DNA from: Alistipes sp.
Lineage (GTDB): Bacteria; Bacteroidota; Bacteroidia; Bacteroidales; Rikenellaceae
Direction: 5' to 3'
Assembly (NCBI GenBank): GCA_017410165.1
Contig: JAFQRH010000007.1
Span: forward strand, 4,447-68,446
DNA length: 64,000 nt
A model generated the notes under the pieces. It saw nothing but the letters and a program-made list of their open reading frames with translations, did no database searches and was not told the DNA's origin. The first letter of the stretch is position 1. Each line of letters starts with the position of its first letter. A program made the position numbers and the translations under genes. Positions 20,069 through 26,248 of the stretch are shown one piece after another.

Positions 20069-21172
20069 TTGAGCATCGACCTGATAATTTCAGAGATACT
20101 GCGTCAGACGATTTGGGAAGTAGCCCCAAATGCCGCCGACGCAATAACAACAGCCGCAGCAGACCTCGACGAGAGCGAGTGGTTTCGGTTGCACGCACTC
20201 GCTGTGCGACAGGGTGTTGTTGCTCTGCTCTTCGATGGATTGATGAGTGCGGGCGTTACGATTCCGCACCACGTAAAGATGCGATTCATATCCTCGACCG
20301 ACCATATCGAGAAGGAGTATGCCAAGAAGCGTCGCATCGCACGAAAACTCGCCGAGGTGTATGCCGGCGAAGATATTCGGATGATGATACTCAAAGGTAT
20401 CGGTATTTCGATGCTCTACCCCGTTGCGCACCATCGCCCAAGCAGCGATATCGACATATATCTCTGTGGCGACCAGCAACGTGGTGATGAACTGCTACAC
20501 AAACTATACGGCATCTCTATCGACAAAGGACGCCATCACCACACGGTTTTTCGCATCAAAAACATACTCATAGAGAACCACTACGACTTTATCGAGGCGC
20601 ATAGTCGCGCATCGTCGCAGAGGGCAGAACAGCGACTTAAAGAGTTGGTTGCCAACGAACAACCGCTCGAAGCCGACATCGACGGCGTGACCTACCTGAC
20701 ACCTTCGCCCACGATGAATGCGTTATTTCTCACGCTACACTCCGCAGCGCATTTCGCCGCCGAAAATATCTCTATACGCCACCTATGCGATTGGGCATTC
20801 TTCCTCAACGCGTACAGCAAGCAGGTCGATTGGCAGGAGATTATGCAGTTGAGCAACGAGTTGGGATTCCGACCATTCCTCGATGTGATGAATGGTGCCT
20901 GTGTGCGATACCTCGGAATGGATGCTTCGCTCGCACCGTCACTCTCGGATGACGAACAGACAATCGAGCGAATGTGGGCGGACTCGATGGAGTACAAGGT
21001 GCGTGATATACCCAAGAACTTCCTACGCGGTTGGATTTATCGAATCAAACGCCGATATGCAAACCGTTGGAAGCAGCGTTTAGCATACTGCGACAACGGA
21101 TTTAGCGCATTTATACGCTCGGCAGCGATTCACATTCTGCCACCAAAGATTGTTCGCAGAGTTCAAGAATAG
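20069..21172 (+). CDS. Nucleotidyltransferase family protein (NTP_transf_5-like)
   Basis: ILKGIG....YP....R.SSDIDIY, IENH; start uncertain (TTG at 20069). Confidence 0.8.
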   Translation: MSIDLIISEILRQTIWEVAPNAADAITTAAADLDESEWFRLHALAVRQGVVALLFDGLMSAGVTIPHHVKMRFISSTDHIEKEYAKKRRIARKLAEVYAGEDIRMMILKGIGISMLYPVAHHRPSSDIDIYLCGDQQRGDELLHKLYGISIDKGRHHHTVFRIKNILIENHYDFIEAHSRASSQRAEQRLKELVANEQPLEADIDGVTYLTPSPTMNALFLTLHSAAHFAAENISIRHLCDWAFFLNAYSKQVDWQEIMQLSNELGFRPFLDVMNGACVRYLGMDASLAPSLSDDEQTIERMWADSMEYKVRDIPKNFLRGWIYRIKRRYANRWKQRLAYCDNGFSAFIRSAAIHILPPKIVRRVQE

Positions 21173-21181
21173 TACTCAAAA

Positions 21182-21228
21182 AAGAGAATCCTCCGACGCT
21201 CACTTTATTCTCGTCGGAGGGTTTTCTT
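21182..21228. terminator. Bidirectional terminator between convergent genes
   Basis: AAGAGAATCCTCCGACG/CGTCGGAGGGTTTTCTT. Confidence 0.8.
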
Positions 21229-22350
21229 CTATTGTGCCATTGCCGGCTGCTTGTGTTTTATACGCGAGGTGACCCTCTTCCAGTCGAGCAATCGCCACCA
21301 ATCGCGTACGAAATCGGCTCGACGATTACGATGGTCGATATAGTAGGCGTGTTCCCACACATCAAGCGTCAGTAACGGGTTCAGCCCCGAACGCAACGGA
21401 TTACCCGCATTCGATGTCGAGACAATCGACAGCCGACCATCCTTATCCTCGACGAGCCATACCCAACCCGAACCAAATAGTGAGGTTGCCGCCTTTGTGA
21501 ACTGCTCTTTGAAGGCATCTACCCCACCGAAATCGCGTTCGATGGCTCTACGCAACTCGGCAGGCATATCGGTTTGCGTCGGGGTGAGCGTATTGAAAAA
21601 GAGCGTATGGTTCCAAACCTGCGCAGCATTATTAAACAGCGCACCGTCGGCGTGAACGACAAGCGAGTCGAGCGTCATCCCTTCGCAGGGCGAGCCGACC
21701 GCCAAGCGATTCAGATTATCGACATACGTTTGCAGGTGTTTGCCGTAGTGGTAGTCGATGGTTTCGCGGCTCATCAGCGGAGCCAAAGCGTCTGCCGAGT
21801 ATGGCAGTGAAGGCATTGTGTAATTCATAATTTTATCGGTTTTGGTTACGTTCGGTTGAGCAACGACCACCTTTACAACATCCCCCGCCCGCAATCGGTT
21901 ATGTAGGTAGATATATCCGTTGAGATAGGTAGCGAAGAATAGCCACAGCAGGTATGGCACCATAAGCCACGCGGCCAACAGACGACGCGAGGCGGCATAT
22001 ATTATATAGGTAAAGACCAACACATCGAGCAGAAGAATCGTTATGAGTCCCGCAAGAGGCGAACGCAATGCAAAGAATACTACGCTCCACAGAAAATTGA
22101 CCAGCAGTTGTAGCAACCACAGGCGCACGACACTCATATCCCCTCGCGAAACAAGCACTCCGATACTCACGCCCATAAGCAGATAGAGCACGCTCCACGC
22201 AATCGGGAAGACGATATTCGGAGGCGTTAGCGGCGAACGCACCAATGTCGGATACCACTCTTCGAGTGCCGAGGTTTGGAGCATCGAGCCAATGACACCA
22301 ACTCCGAAGCACAGCAGTATAGGCACAACGTATGACAACACCTTTCTCAT
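21229..22350 (-). CDS. TspO/MBR tryptophan-rich sensory domain fused in frame to an Fe/Mn superoxide dismutase
   Basis: WYPTL..SPLTPPN.VF..AW..LY.LMG and LWL.FATYLN (TspO), then YHYGKH, NAAQVWNH, FGSGW, DVWEHAYY (SOD); no stop between them; ATG at 22350. Confidence 0.9.
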   Translation of the reverse strand: MRKVLSYVVPILLCFGVGVIGSMLQTSALEEWYPTLVRSPLTPPNIVFPIAWSVLYLLMGVSIGVLVSRGDMSVVRLWLLQLLVNFLWSVVFFALRSPLAGLITILLLDVLVFTYIIYAASRRLLAAWLMVPYLLWLFFATYLNGYIYLHNRLRAGDVVKVVVAQPNVTKTDKIMNYTMPSLPYSADALAPLMSRETIDYHYGKHLQTYVDNLNRLAVGSPCEGMTLDSLVVHADGALFNNAAQVWNHTLFFNTLTPTQTDMPAELRRAIERDFGGVDAFKEQFTKAATSLFGSGWVWLVEDKDGRLSIVSTSNAGNPLRSGLNPLLTLDVWEHAYYIDHRNRRADFVRDWWRLLDWKRVTSRIKHKQPAMAQ

Positions 22351-22418
22351 AAAAGCAACAAAATTTAGTTCGTACGACGATACGCTACAAATCCAATGCC
22401 CCAATCGACAAAAAGATA

Positions 22419-22452
22419 GGTGGGTATCCGAGAAACATCTCGAATACCCACC
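22419..22452 (-). terminator. Terminator-like hairpin after MFS transporter 1
   Basis: GGTGGGTAT..CGAGA/TCTCG.ATACCCACC. Confidence 0.6.
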
Positions 22453-22480
22453 CATATTATACCCTACGCGGGGCTATACG

Positions 22481-23935
22481 CTACGCCTGTTGCTCCTCGT
22501 AGCCATCGGCTTTGGCACTCCACATCGTGAGCAACGACACCACGCCGAGCATAGCCATAATCAAAATGGTTATATACGCTGCATTCCAACCATAGTGCTG
22601 TGCTACGAAACCGAAGCCAACACCCGAGATGAGCGTACTTGCATAACCAAAGATACCAAGAATACCGTTTGCCGTAGCAGCTGCGCGGTTAGTTGCCTGA
22701 TTAGCGGCAGCAACACCCAGCAACGCCTGCGGACCATAGATAAAGAAGCCGATAAATGTAAATGGAATCATCATCAACCACCAAGGCGAACCCGTCGGAA
22801 TAACCCAAAAGAGGGCAATCGACAACGCTGCACCTATCATACAGAATACGCACGTGTGGTGTGCCTTATTCTTGAACACGTGGTCCGTAACCCAACCTGC
22901 AACGACCATACCGATATTACCGCCGATGAACTCGAATACGATACAGAGCGTTGTAGCCATAGCCAACGACAAGCCCTTCGACTCGATGAGCAACGTCGGG
23001 CCCCAGTCGAGCGCAGCAAAACGAACGACATAGACAAAGAAGTTGGTCAGCGCCAACGTCCAAATCAGACGATTGCCAAACACCTTGCGGCGAACAAATG
23101 CTTTGTACTCTGCCTTCTCCTCCGGCGTACGCACGATTGCCTTCTTCTTGCCCACAACCTCCGGAAGACCGACATCCGACGGAGAGTCTTTAAGCAGTGT
23201 GAACAATCCGATGGCACCAATCGTGGCAAATATAGCCGGAATGATGAAGCACCAACGCCAAGCATAGAAGTGTGCTGCAAAGGTGAGCACCTTCGGGTCG
23301 GTGACCTCCAAGCCGAGATTCGATGCGATAGTGGCTACCGCCTCGGCATTTGCCGACATATCGACACCCAGATGAGGCATAATATACCAGCCGCACAAGC
23401 CGAATACAAGACCTGCACCAATCGAGTGGGACATATTCCAGATGGAGAGTTTCGTAGCGAGTTCCTTCGGATGAACCCACTGCGTGATGGTCTTGGTGAT
23501 AGGCGGCACGCCCATACCCTGCAAGTAGCCATTAATCACCCACACGATGCCCATAAAGTAGAGTAACACGCTCGAAAAGGCAATCTCGACACCTGCATTA
23601 TTCGCCAACGCAACAATCCATCCGGCGATGGTATCGCTACAACCGAACAAGAAGTTAGCCAATGCACACAGCATCAAGCCAATCGAAACAACAATACGCG
23701 CGCTGTTGCGGTCCGAAATAATACCGTTCACGAAACGCGACAGACCGTAGATAATGCCGTGCAACGTAAGGAACAAACCGAGCGACACCTTCGAGATACC
23801 GAACTCAGCCGTCAAACCCGGCATTGCAACCGAAAAGTTTTTACGCACGAAGTAGAAGAACGCGTAGCCCACCATCGTAACGATGATGGTCCGCCACTGC
23901 CAATACTGAAACGAGTGTTTGGTTTTTTCAGCCAT
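22481..23935 (-). CDS. GlpT/UhpT-type organophosphate:Pi antiporter (MFS), paralog 1
   Basis: YWQWRT...GY..FYFVRKN, WNMSHSIG, YVVRF..LDWGP, FIYGPQAL; both substrate-binding Arg motifs present. Confidence 0.92.
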   Translation of the reverse strand: MAEKTKHSFQYWQWRTIIVTMVGYAFFYFVRKNFSVAMPGLTAEFGISKVSLGLFLTLHGIIYGLSRFVNGIISDRNSARIVVSIGLMLCALANFLFGCSDTIAGWIVALANNAGVEIAFSSVLLYFMGIVWVINGYLQGMGVPPITKTITQWVHPKELATKLSIWNMSHSIGAGLVFGLCGWYIMPHLGVDMSANAEAVATIASNLGLEVTDPKVLTFAAHFYAWRWCFIIPAIFATIGAIGLFTLLKDSPSDVGLPEVVGKKKAIVRTPEEKAEYKAFVRRKVFGNRLIWTLALTNFFVYVVRFAALDWGPTLLIESKGLSLAMATTLCIVFEFIGGNIGMVVAGWVTDHVFKNKAHHTCVFCMIGAALSIALFWVIPTGSPWWLMMIPFTFIGFFIYGPQALLGVAAANQATNRAAATANGILGIFGYASTLISGVGFGFVAQHYGWNAAYITILIMAMLGVVSLLTMWSAKADGYEEQQA

Positions 23936-23994
23936 TTTATCTAATTAAGTTTTAGGTTTTTAAGGTTTTTTGTTTGGTAGATGCGGTTGCGAGA

Positions 23995-25335
23995 TTACTC
24001 AACCTCCCAGATACCACCCTTGCCAAAGAGACGCTCGGTAAGTTCGGCCATAAATCCGCAACGATAGACGATATCGATATTCGTAAAGCGGCTACGCATA
24101 TACGGAATATACGAGAAGGTCTTACGCATACGCTCGCGTGTCACGCCGATATGCTCCGGCTCATAAGGAGCGCCTACCAAACGGAGGTTTTCGCGCACCT
24201 CGGCAAACGGAATAATCTGCTCACGAATCTGCTCTTTGAGCGTAGGCCAAGCGGCTTTGAGTGCCTCCAACTGCTTGCGCAAGCCCTCTTTATCGGTATA
24301 TTTACCGTAGGTCTCCTTCAAACCACGAGCAAGGTGACCAGGCATTCCTGCGAATACCTCACGAATCTCCTGCTCCTGCTCTTCCCACGACTTCCACTGC
24401 TCGACGCACTTATCAACGTCCAGATTAGCAATATCCTTCTCCAACAAGAACTCCAACGATGCGGTCGAAGCCAACGTGCCGATACCGACCTTGAAGCCGT
24501 GCGACACGTGCTTACCCTCGAAGCACAAATCCTCCATATCCCAGCAGTGCGAGAACTGGTGCTCGGTACCCGACGCCGGACGGCTCGACTGGATTGCCTG
24601 CATAGCAAAGCCACTCATAAGCAGACCCTCGGCGAGTGCCTCGGTCATCTTCAAGTCGCCCTCGTGCACAGCAGCCGGAGCCGACAACGACTCACGCAGA
24701 CCATCCTGCACCAAATCCCACGCAAACTTATCTACCGGCTCGTTACCCGTAACGTCAGCCAGCAACCAATCTGCCGCAGCAGGAATCTTCGCAATCAAAT
24801 CGGCATAACCCGACGCAGCCAACTCCTTCGGAGCATCAGCCGCAATAACAGGGTCCATCACAAAACCGTATGGAGCCGGACAATCGAACGTCTGCTTGTT
24901 GCCATCCTTGGTAATCGACGCGCCGTAAGCCGTGTAGCCATCCATCGAAGCAGCCGTACCTACACACATATATTTGCGACCGAGCAGATGCGAAGCATAC
25001 TTGGTCATATCGTTCATCACACCCGAACCGACAGCGATAGCGATTGCGTCCAGATTTTTCAGATGCTCGTGAATCTTCTCGACGTGCTGCCACTCGGCGT
25101 AGAGTTCCTTGTCGGTAAAGATAAACGGCTTCTCCTGCGGAATACCTGCCGCTTCGAGCGAAGCAAATACCGCCTTGCCGGCTACCTCCCACGTATTGAG
25201 GTCGGCAATGATGATTGCCGTCTGCTGCGGGAAGAGTTTGGCGAACATCTCTGCCGTACGCGATACCACACCGGCACCAATAATAAGGTCTTTTGTGTCT
25301 GTTGTGCGTTGAAGAGCACTCTCTACTTTGTTCAT
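23995..25335 (-). CDS. araM: sn-glycerol-1-phosphate dehydrogenase family (AraM/EgsA-like)
   Basis: AVGSGVMND..K, GTAASMDGY, SGYADLIAK, RPASGTEHQFSH, SHGFKVG. Confidence 0.88.
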   Translation of the reverse strand: MNKVESALQRTTDTKDLIIGAGVVSRTAEMFAKLFPQQTAIIIADLNTWEVAGKAVFASLEAAGIPQEKPFIFTDKELYAEWQHVEKIHEHLKNLDAIAIAVGSGVMNDMTKYASHLLGRKYMCVGTAASMDGYTAYGASITKDGNKQTFDCPAPYGFVMDPVIAADAPKELAASGYADLIAKIPAAADWLLADVTGNEPVDKFAWDLVQDGLRESLSAPAAVHEGDLKMTEALAEGLLMSGFAMQAIQSSRPASGTEHQFSHCWDMEDLCFEGKHVSHGFKVGIGTLASTASLEFLLEKDIANLDVDKCVEQWKSWEEQEQEIREVFAGMPGHLARGLKETYGKYTDKEGLRKQLEALKAAWPTLKEQIREQIIPFAEVRENLRLVGAPYEPEHIGVTRERMRKTFSYIPYMRSRFTNIDIVYRCGFMAELTERLFGKGGIWEVE

Positions 25336-25365
25336 TTTCTCTATTGTGTTTTAGTTTTACATCAT

Positions 25366-26055
25366 CTACTTCTTTTGGCCATAGTAGGCATTTGCACCGT
25401 GCTTGCGCTCGTAGTGCTTCTCGACAAGGTCGGGATTCATCTCGACCGACGGATTCAGCGCCACCGTGATAGATGCCATTCGGGCAACCTCCTCCAAAAT
25501 CACAGCGTTATGCACCGCATCGTGCGCACTCTTACCCCACGTGAATGGACCGTGATGCTTGACGAGGACCGCCGGCGTATGCATCGGATTCATACCCTCG
25601 AAGGCATCGGCAATCACATCACCGGTCGCCGCCTCGTATGCCGATTCAATCTGCTCGCGCGTCATCTCCTCCGTACACGGAATGTCGCAATAGAACGTAT
25701 CGGCGTGTGTCGTTCCGATATTCGGAATTGCGCGACCCGCCTGTGCCCAAGCCGTTGCGTAGGTCGAGTGGGTATGCACGACACCGCCAACATCCGCAAA
25801 GCGACGATAGATGGCAAGATGTGTCGGCGTATCGGACGACGGACGGAGCGTGCCATCGACCACATTACCATCCAAATCGACAACGACCATATCGTCTGCC
25901 GTCATATTATCGTACTCGACACCACTCGGCTTGATAACGACCAAACCCGTCTTACGGTCGATTGCGGAGACGTTACCCCAAGTGAGTATCACCAAATTGC
26001 GGCGCACCAATTCAAGATTGGCATCCAGCACCTCACGTTTCAACTCTTCAAGCAT
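25366..26055 (-). CDS. araD: L-ribulose-5-phosphate 4-epimerase
   Basis: [49 protein letters not shown]. Confidence 0.96.
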
Positions 26056-26248
26056 TGCTATACGTGTTTTACAGATTGATTATTTAGTTAGTTTGTCAGT
26101 GTCGGTATTTCAAAAGTTATCCTTTTCAACCACAAAAATAACTACACGGTATCAAAAAAGCAAGAAAAACTATCACCAATCGATGTTTTTCTTTCCTTTT
26201 CTTACTTTTCTACTTTGCTTTTTGCACACTTTCCATTTTTAAGCGATG

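Follow-up and report, generated by a model that had tools for sequence, protein, structure and literature searches.

When a single open reading frame (ORF) joins a membrane protein of the TspO family to a superoxide dismutase (SOD), is it a real gene, how did it arise, and what would the joining achieve? The question is raised by a 64,000-nucleotide (nt) stretch of DNA from Alistipes sp. (assembly GCA_017410165.1, contig JAFQRH010000007.1, positions 4,447 to 68,446), referred to below as the window. Here an ORF of 373 amino acids (aa) on the minus strand runs from a TspO domain through a linker into a complete SOD and ends in a TAG codon at 21229-21231 (Table 1). TSPO/TspO proteins are ancient and medically prominent, serving as a drug and positron emission tomography (PET) imaging target. 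Their biochemical function is disputed, as is their orientation in bacteria (PMC8243069, PMC12002307). A preliminary description of the locus had proposed a membrane-tethered SOD beside a porphyrin-handling domain, perhaps made in a long and a short form, and had added the caveat that a tspO stop codon lost in this strain or assembly would look the same. The fusion is a genuine conserved single gene of Alistipes and a sister Bacteroidales lineage. Its parts are ordinary family members; what is new is the recognition and interpretation of the combination, not the sequence. Literature searches returned no paper on a TspO-SOD fusion and none on SOD-rubredoxin fusions, and one apparent match (PMC5409546) was discarded as irrelevant.

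A conserved TspO-SOD fusion gene

The layout given in the preliminary description, a TspO domain, a linker of about 20 residues and a complete SOD with its metal-ligand motifs, agrees with the profile searches. Pfam places TspO_MBR (PF03073) at residues 11-149 (1.3e-37, 129.2 bits against a cutoff of 24, profile positions 2-145 of 145), Sod_Fe_N (PF00081) at residues 176-255 (9.5e-25, 87.3 bits) and Sod_Fe_C (PF02777) at residues 264-363 (7.6e-39, 132.3 bits), whereas the NCBIfam TspO equivalog model scores 89 bits, under its cutoff of 180. The linker is about 22 aa long here and predicted to be disordered, and the HYGKH, WNH and DVWEH motifs are all found in the protein. An AlphaFold2 (AF2) model built with 76 sequences (mean predicted local distance difference test (pLDDT) score 89; predicted template modelling (pTM) score 0.58) contains five helices and a canonical SOD fold. 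The helices, at residues 2-31, 47-67, 75-94, 98-122 and 124-150, have a pLDDT of about 90-98, and the hydropathy profile agrees with them.

Each half has well-characterized relatives. In the Protein Data Bank (PDB) the TspO domain matches RsTspO and BcTSPO at 1e-12, with W52 and W136 aligned with BcTSPO W51 and W138. It shares the five-helix fold, the Pfam family and the pocket Trp positions with standalone TspOs (R. sphaeroides 4UC1/8E7X, B. cereus 4RYI), although identity to the solved structures is low; standalone TspOs also end within a few residues of the fifth transmembrane helix (TM5), whereas the fusion adds a 19-39-aa linker and a 190-aa enzyme. The SOD domain matches 1UES, 1QNN and 8AVM at about 1e-68. 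In Foldseek comparisons its part of the model superimposes on 8AVL (B. fragilis SodFM2), 1QNN (P. gingivalis) and 3H1S (Francisella SOD) with template modelling scores of 0.95-0.97 and root-mean-square deviations of 0.8-1.0 Å. It is 52-55% identical to the P. gingivalis (1QNN/1UES) and B. fragilis (8AVL/8AVM) enzymes and has the same ligands and the Fe-type Gln, and their N-terminal Met corresponds in position to Met175; those enzymes, however, are free, soluble proteins of about 191 aa, whereas here the SOD is the C-terminal domain of a polytopic membrane protein. The ligands H201, H248, D330 and H334, together with Y209, correspond to His26, His73, Asp156, His160 and Tyr34 in E. coli FeSOD numbering, and the domain is predicted to be catalytically intact. 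The preliminary description had called it Fe-type. By sequence it is, since the second-sphere Gln of the FNNAAQ motif (Q244) is present and invariant and among the NCBIfam SOD models SodB (Fe) scores best, with 233.6 bits where SodA reaches 170.8; the label is to be read with the reservation that the curated SodB cutoff of 348 is not reached and that the closest solved relatives include the cambialistic P. gingivalis enzyme.

The three-domain architecture, for which the preliminary description had suggested a database search, recurs in related proteins. In a collection of 5.8 billion proteins we found at least 120 protein clusters (a lower bound), 54-99% identical, every one with TspO_MBR, Sod_Fe_N and Sod_Fe_C. 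Named members come from Alistipes metagenome-assembled genomes, A. onderdonkii and cultured A. putredinis (WP_418976708.1, annotated 'rubredoxin'). We also scanned one genome per species, with an alignment that covered TspO and the N-terminal part of the SOD; of the 34 nearest species-level loci, 16 are in-frame fusions, among them that of the type strain A. putredinis DSM 17216. In the 121 sequences compared, the linker shows little conservation and measures 19-39 aa from the end of TM5 to a conserved Pro; its indels are all in frame, and no stop or frameshift occurs. Invariant in the 76-sequence family alignment are the four SOD ligands, Y209 and Q244, and W32, W52, W78, W88 and W136 of TspO. 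Both domains are under purifying selection. Public annotations vary between 'tryptophan-rich sensory protein', 'Fe-Mn family superoxide dismutase', 'rubredoxin' and 'hypothetical', and because the names are inconsistent the architecture is hidden from name-based searches.

Could the fusion nevertheless be an assembly error, or a strain-specific loss of the tspO stop, and not a real or selected gene? A single nonsense-to-sense change does part the two states: in one relative (L017, below) one in-frame TAA lies between tspO and sod. Neither an error nor a strain-specific change accounts, however, for at least 120 clusters that keep the fusion down to 54% identity with in-frame linker indels, for its presence in type-strain genomes, or for the invariant catalytic residues of both domains. 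A check across the junction, also suggested in the preliminary description, gave the same answer. Independent metagenome assemblies carry the ORF, one contig, 97% identical, crossing the junction without a frame-breaking indel, and two metatranscriptome contigs run across it as well (X25, 21523-22313; X26, 21420-22435), with the limit that these are assembled Logan contigs, which may contain DNA and cannot show 5' ends. Nor do close relatives all stop after TspO, as a stop separates the genes in just two more distant species. The caveat therefore falls away, and we regard an artefact as extremely improbable.

The fusion is one narrow clade and not a widespread architecture: clustering at 50% identity shrinks the family to a handful of representatives, P0051 being the only full-length close one, and P0378 and P0379 in that census are one truncated and one frameshifted copy. 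A distant TspO-SOD fusion of 361 aa (P0475, 35% identity) has a degenerate TspO domain (38.8 bits) and DTL in place of the GKH motif, and may be a decaying or repurposed paralogue.

Origin and relatives of the fusion

In the two species just mentioned, L017 (UMGS999) and L027 (OZ007034.1), tspO and sod are adjacent yet separate, with a stop codon, an A-rich spacer of 27-33 nt and the ATG of sod. In L027, a HiFi chromosome, tspO ends in ...YIVFNN-TGA and 27 A-rich bases lead to a sod beginning MTHQKPQLPY... in a different frame, while in L017 the TAA and 33 bases lie between the genes. Both share upstream synteny with the fused locus L014, and a neighbour-joining tree built from TspO domains groups them with L013, L014 and L016, all of which are fused. 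These pairs resemble the fusion in locus, which is orthologous, in gene order and in the sequence before sod, where the spacer ends ...AAATT-ATG, matching the linker of the window; they differ in that their SOD is made as a free protein. Their sod starts at a Met homologous to Met175 of the fusion, and in the alignment the SODs of P. gingivalis and B. fragilis likewise begin, with residue 1, at Met175. The fusion most likely arose from a two-gene tspO-sod operon in which the tspO stop was lost and the A-rich spacer became the linker, and we infer that at least one further fusion or fission event followed. Two Alistipes loci nested in the fusion clade (L012, 3914-4378; L018, 4001-4456) encode TspO only (151-154 aa), with a terminator and then a convergent gene downstream; these represent an apparent secondary loss of the SOD part. 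The fusion is favoured, not obligatory.

Several related proteins join the same kind of SOD to other partners. In A. putredinis DSM 17216 (L009 4001-5269, NZ_DS499577.1; P0045, P0054, P0090, P0091) the protein is a TspO-SOD-rubredoxin of 422 aa, in a cluster of 1318 sequences, and its RefSeq name is just 'rubredoxin'. Soluble SOD-rubredoxin fusions of 240-320 aa without a signal peptide (P0258, P0264, P0342 and others; L081-L085) are abundant, one cluster having 1396 members, and some carry an acidic linker or PF21349. Their SOD domains are the closest non-TspO relatives found, at up to 68% identity; they are monocistronic, lack a membrane domain and do not adjoin tspO, whereas the protein of the window lacks a rubredoxin. 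P0392 (391 aa) combines a signal peptide, an AhpC/TSA-Redoxin domain and an Fe/Mn-type SOD that is 51% identical to the query, and looks like an exported peroxidase-SOD fusion. By these sequences, the SOD lineage of the fusion is prone to joining redox partners. As a speculation, the SOD metal might receive electrons from a fused rubredoxin and so act in the manner of a superoxide reductase.

Transcription unit and possible internal start

Gene callers often lengthen the ORF to 408 aa, starting from an ATG at 22455. Because that ATG sits in the hairpin that terminates the upstream gene, ahead of a promoter-like motif, and because homologues of the fusion begin at MKK or MRK, 373 aa is the right length; most automated calls for this species thus begin the protein 35 codons too early (22351-22455, minus strand). 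The motif follows TTTG/TAnnTTTG, which we take to be the Bacteroidetes promoter consensus. It was the sole match in a pattern scan across 20500-23000, and its -7 element has one extra base. As it ends 8 nt before the ATG at 22350, the mRNA leader would be very short or absent. The hairpin of the MFS-transporter gene forms the 5' boundary of the unit, and since a bidirectional terminator, with its hairpin at 21190-21220 and common to tspO-sod and a convergent NTP_transf_5 gene, closes it, tspO-sod is monocistronic.

Within this unit the preliminary description had pointed to a possible second start, at the Met that opens the SOD, behind an A-rich sequence resembling a Bacteroidetes initiation region. 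The ATG of codon 175, with its A at 21828, is preceded by AACCAAAACCGATAAAATT. Translation in Bacteroidetes starts without Shine-Dalgarno pairing and is favoured by low structure and by A at -3 and -6 (PMC6847099). The 20 nt upstream of the ATG are 55% A, including positions -3 and -6, and the 60-nt segment centred on codon 175 is the least structured of the gene, with a minimum free energy of -0.1 kcal/mol against -13.7 +/- 4.6 for the coding sequence. The annotated start, by comparison, has 25% A and -6.5 kcal/mol. The gene contains a candidate in-frame internal start with a competent-looking context.

Comparison at the DNA level covered 17 fused sequences, the window and the 16 loci. A linker Met is kept in 14 of them, at either of two positions, and in 13 of these 14 the site is among the least structured of the gene (z 1.6-2.9). 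In the ten codons before the linker Met, 43% of synonymous codons end in A against 24% elsewhere (Fisher p = 2e-6, from pooled and phylogenetically non-independent sequences), and the three loci without a linker Met have 3 of 30. Because the signal sits at synonymous sites and vanishes together with the Met, it points to selection at the nucleotide level and not to a relic. An internal promoter was rejected as a source of a short form: the coding strand within tspO contains no TAnnTTTG, and a sigma-70 scan did no better than shuffled sequences. A short form would thus need internal translation initiation on the same mRNA.

Two alternatives have to be weighed here. Under the first, the gene yields the long tethered protein alone, and the Met in the linker, with the A-rich sequence around it, is an ancestral relic or a consequence of Thr-, Asn- and Lys-rich linker codons. 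A Met at the exact ancestral position occurs in just 31 of the 121 family members and none is present in the linker of 29; the amino acids T, N, A and K are frequent in the linker, and part of the A-richness could stem from the T/N/K make-up of a flexible stretch; and the missing internal promoter motif is in keeping with a single product. The A-enrichment extends, however, to synonymous third positions and is gone in the three Met-less lineages, neutral synonymous sites should not keep a relic at 54-80% protein identity, and in the window the site is both the least structured point of the mRNA and better in context than the annotated start. We consider this alternative rather unlikely. The second is that the long form is a tolerated by-product, the real output being free SOD from the internal start and the link a matter of co-expression left over from the former operon. 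The viability of unfused and TspO-only relatives fits this, as does an internal initiation context stronger than that of the annotated start. Neutral read-through would, however, be expected to gather stops or frameshifts, whereas the frame is open across a fast-evolving, indel-rich linker in all of the at least 120 clusters and the 16 species-level genomes, and three lineages have lost the internal Met and its context yet kept the fusion. Such a by-product is improbable. We slightly favour the view that a free SOD of 22.6 kDa is also made from Met175 beside the 42-kDa tethered form. The proposed internal start has thus gained from the ancestral position of the Met, the low structure and the synonymous-site signature, while the two isoforms themselves are a prediction.

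Table 1 Features of the tspO-sod locus (positions in the window)
Feature	Position	Strand	Basis
Full coding sequence, TspO-linker-SOD	21229..22350	-	ORF translation, Pfam, NCBIfam, homologue search
TspO domain, residues 1-152, five transmembrane helices, invariant Trp52 and Trp136	21895..22350	-	Pfam, AF2, PDB sequence matches, alignment
Linker, residues 153-174, T/N/A/K-rich, predicted disordered	21829..21894	-	AF2 pLDDT and alignments
A-rich unstructured stretch resembling a translation-initiation region; A at -3, -6, -12 and -13	21829..21850	-	Composition and folding
Internal in-frame ATG (Met175), putative ancestral sod start position	21826..21828	-	SOD alignment, unfused sod genes
Fe/Mn-family SOD domain, residues 175-373, of the Fe-type/cambialistic Bacteroidales kind	21232..21828	-	Pfam, NCBIfam, PDB, Foldseek
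Bacteroidetes-type promoter-like motif TTTG-N20-TAAATTTTG	22359..22391	-	Pattern scan and sequence
Terminator hairpin of the upstream MFS-transporter gene, 18 pairs and T run	22416..22455	-	Fold; Pfam of upstream gene
Bidirectional intrinsic terminator CCTCCGACG...CGTCGGAGG, T runs on both strands	21175..21222	.	Sequence; fold -20.2 kcal/mol

The neighbouring genes in the window encode an MFS transporter, an Fe-ADH, an aldolase, the NTP_transf_5 protein and an aminotransferase, and are functionally unrelated to tspO-sod. No second SOD or TspO was found within the window, and an Rfam search found no RNA family anywhere in it. Two plus-strand ORFs of 424 and 701 aa (22292-23566 and 23974-26079) lie on the strand opposite the MFS-transporter and Fe-ADH genes; translations of low complexity, rich in Arg and His, suggest that they are shadow ORFs and not genes.

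Membrane side and proposed role of the SOD

Five helices place the C-terminus of the TspO domain on the side of loop 1, which forms the lid of the porphyrin pocket, and they do so in either insertion. To compare the two faces we counted Lys and Arg, setting the N-terminus with loops 2 and 4 on one side and loops 1 and 3 on the other. A set of 46 distant standalone TspOs gives 7.5 versus 2.0, with the bias in one direction in every member, 16 Bacteroidales standalone TspOs give 7.25 versus 2.0 and the 121 fusions 5.8 versus 2.2; 93 of the fusions are still biased with the first 10 linker residues counted. Reading the A. putredinis fusion (P0045) from its sequence gives about 10 versus 2. Just after TM5, Lys and Arg go up from 0.1 to 1.5 in the fusions, and a short-linker subclade has 5.8 versus 4.8. 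The 46 distant TspOs (L035-L080), from Firmicutes, Bacteroidetes, candidate phyla and archaea, share the bias, whereas RsTspO, in common with mammalian TSPO, is biased the other way; lineages may differ in which way round TspO is inserted.

Two topologies follow. With the TspO N-terminus cytoplasmic and the C-terminus outside, the full-length protein would present its SOD in the periplasm, beside a periplasm-facing pocket, and an internally initiated SOD would be cytoplasmic. The positive-inside rule applied to the family charge bias puts the C-terminus and SOD there, one paper describes the TspO pocket as periplasm-facing (PMC8354205), the related signal-peptide fusion P0392 indicates that such a SOD can be exported, and a cyanobacterial membrane-anchored MnSOD faces the lumen or periplasm (PMC6616624). 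Against a periplasmic SOD stand the lack of a signal peptide in the ancestral sod and in the soluble SOD-rubredoxin relatives, which makes these cytoplasmic, the gain of Lys and Arg after TM5, and the nearly balanced counts of the short-linker subclade. The Bacteroidetes O-glycosylation motif D[ST][AILVMT] is weakly enriched in the linkers (14 of 121 versus 7.7 +/- 2.6 in shuffled sequences), too weakly and with too much phylogenetic clustering to be used as a periplasm marker. A periplasmic rubredoxin without an obvious reductant, as A. putredinis would then have, is also not known.

With the opposite insertion the C-terminus and SOD, and in A. putredinis the rubredoxin, would be cytoplasmic, and the fusion would merely concentrate a cytoplasmic SOD at the inner membrane face. 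This agrees with the cytoplasmic ancestry of the SOD and SOD-rubredoxin modules and with the positive residues gained straight after TM5; moreover, the RsTspO sequence counts to the opposite bias and, according to reviews, species differ in TSPO orientation (PMC8243069, PMC4237140), so that orientation in the family is evolvable. What speaks against this insertion is the strong, uniform bias of the family, for about six positive charges, on the MKK N-terminus and on loops 2 and 4, would have to lie in the periplasm. We consider a periplasmic and a cytoplasmic SOD about equally likely. That one gene serves two compartments, with full-length SOD carried over the inner membrane behind TM5 into the periplasm, at the mouth of the TspO pocket, and internal-start SOD in the cytoplasm, is doubtful. 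In the literature searched we found no description of a TspO-anchored, periplasm-facing Fe/Mn-type SOD.

How the joined parts might work can be proposed for either side of the membrane. A five-helix TspO would be joined by a flexible linker to a SOD tethered at the face that bears loop 1, where the pocket opens. The Fe/Mn SODs closest to the SOD domain of the fusion are dimers. TspO is dimeric too (PMC2911597), and the linker length would allow a 2:2 TspO-SOD assembly. TSPO proteins bind porphyrins and haem. Oxidative degradation of protoporphyrin IX by TSPO, via reactive oxygen species and Trp radicals, has been reported, with BcTSPO W51 and W138 implicated, and excited protoporphyrin IX can yield superoxide by passing an electron to oxygen (PMC12002307). 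BcTSPO keeps both the build-up of porphyrin and oxidative damage in check (PMC13185565). Porphyrin binding or degradation by the TspO domain of the fusion is putative, the pocket Trp residues being conserved. The tethered SOD would dismutate superoxide that arises from contact of oxygen with membrane-bound porphyrin or haem, or with nearby membrane redox enzymes. With the SOD within the linker's reach of the pocket opening, this would be a local detoxification module for anaerobes that meet oxygen, and the former sod initiation region, still present in the linker of most lineages, would also yield the free SOD. The coupling of porphyrin and superoxide is something we infer.

Several observations run counter to this account. 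The AF2 model is confident within both domains, but residues 153-172 have a pLDDT below 50, and with a pTM of 0.58 no defined domain arrangement emerges; the model was accordingly dropped for reading domain orientation. Clustering of flanking ORFs at 18 loci gave local synteny only and no common porphyrin-, haem- or stress-related gene. The topology evidence conflicts as to where superoxide would be removed. The unfused and TspO-only relatives, the family members without a linker Met, the composition of the linker and the limits of the RNA contigs tell in the same direction. Weighing both sides, we find it fairly probable that the explanation holds as a whole: a conserved tethered TspO-SOD of operon origin, removing superoxide on the porphyrin side, with a second, free SOD.

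The nearest known parallel qualifies the statement in the preliminary description that SODs are normally soluble. SodA of Anabaena PCC 7120 is a membrane-anchored MnSOD that also has soluble forms in several compartments, and a review calls it the only membrane-anchored SOD (PMC6616624). It resembles the fusion as an Fe/Mn-family SOD at a membrane and in the pairing of a long with a short form, as proposed here. It differs in having a single N-terminal helix as anchor, soluble forms that arise by proteolytic cleavage, Mn as the metal and an oxygenic phototroph as host, whereas the fusion has a whole TspO as anchor, Fe-type residues and a short form that would come from internal initiation. With its five-helix anchor and Fe-type residues the fusion lies outside the cyanobacterial membrane-anchored MnSOD class and is a functional analogue only. 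It would be a second kind of membrane-tethered Fe/Mn SOD, and a candidate dual-isoform gene in a phylum that initiates without Shine-Dalgarno sequences.

A fusion to SOD that selection has kept is classic gene-fusion evidence that two activities work together. Here it offers a concrete link between TspO, porphyrins and superoxide in A. putredinis and A. onderdonkii, both culturable. If the two-compartment reading were true, the fusion would be a natural topology reporter for prokaryotic TspO, and Rosetta-stone evidence that the native job of TspO involves superoxide. The finding bears on how abundant gut anaerobes handle oxygen and host-derived haem, and gives a lead toward the function of TspO and the question of its topology in culturable gut bacteria.

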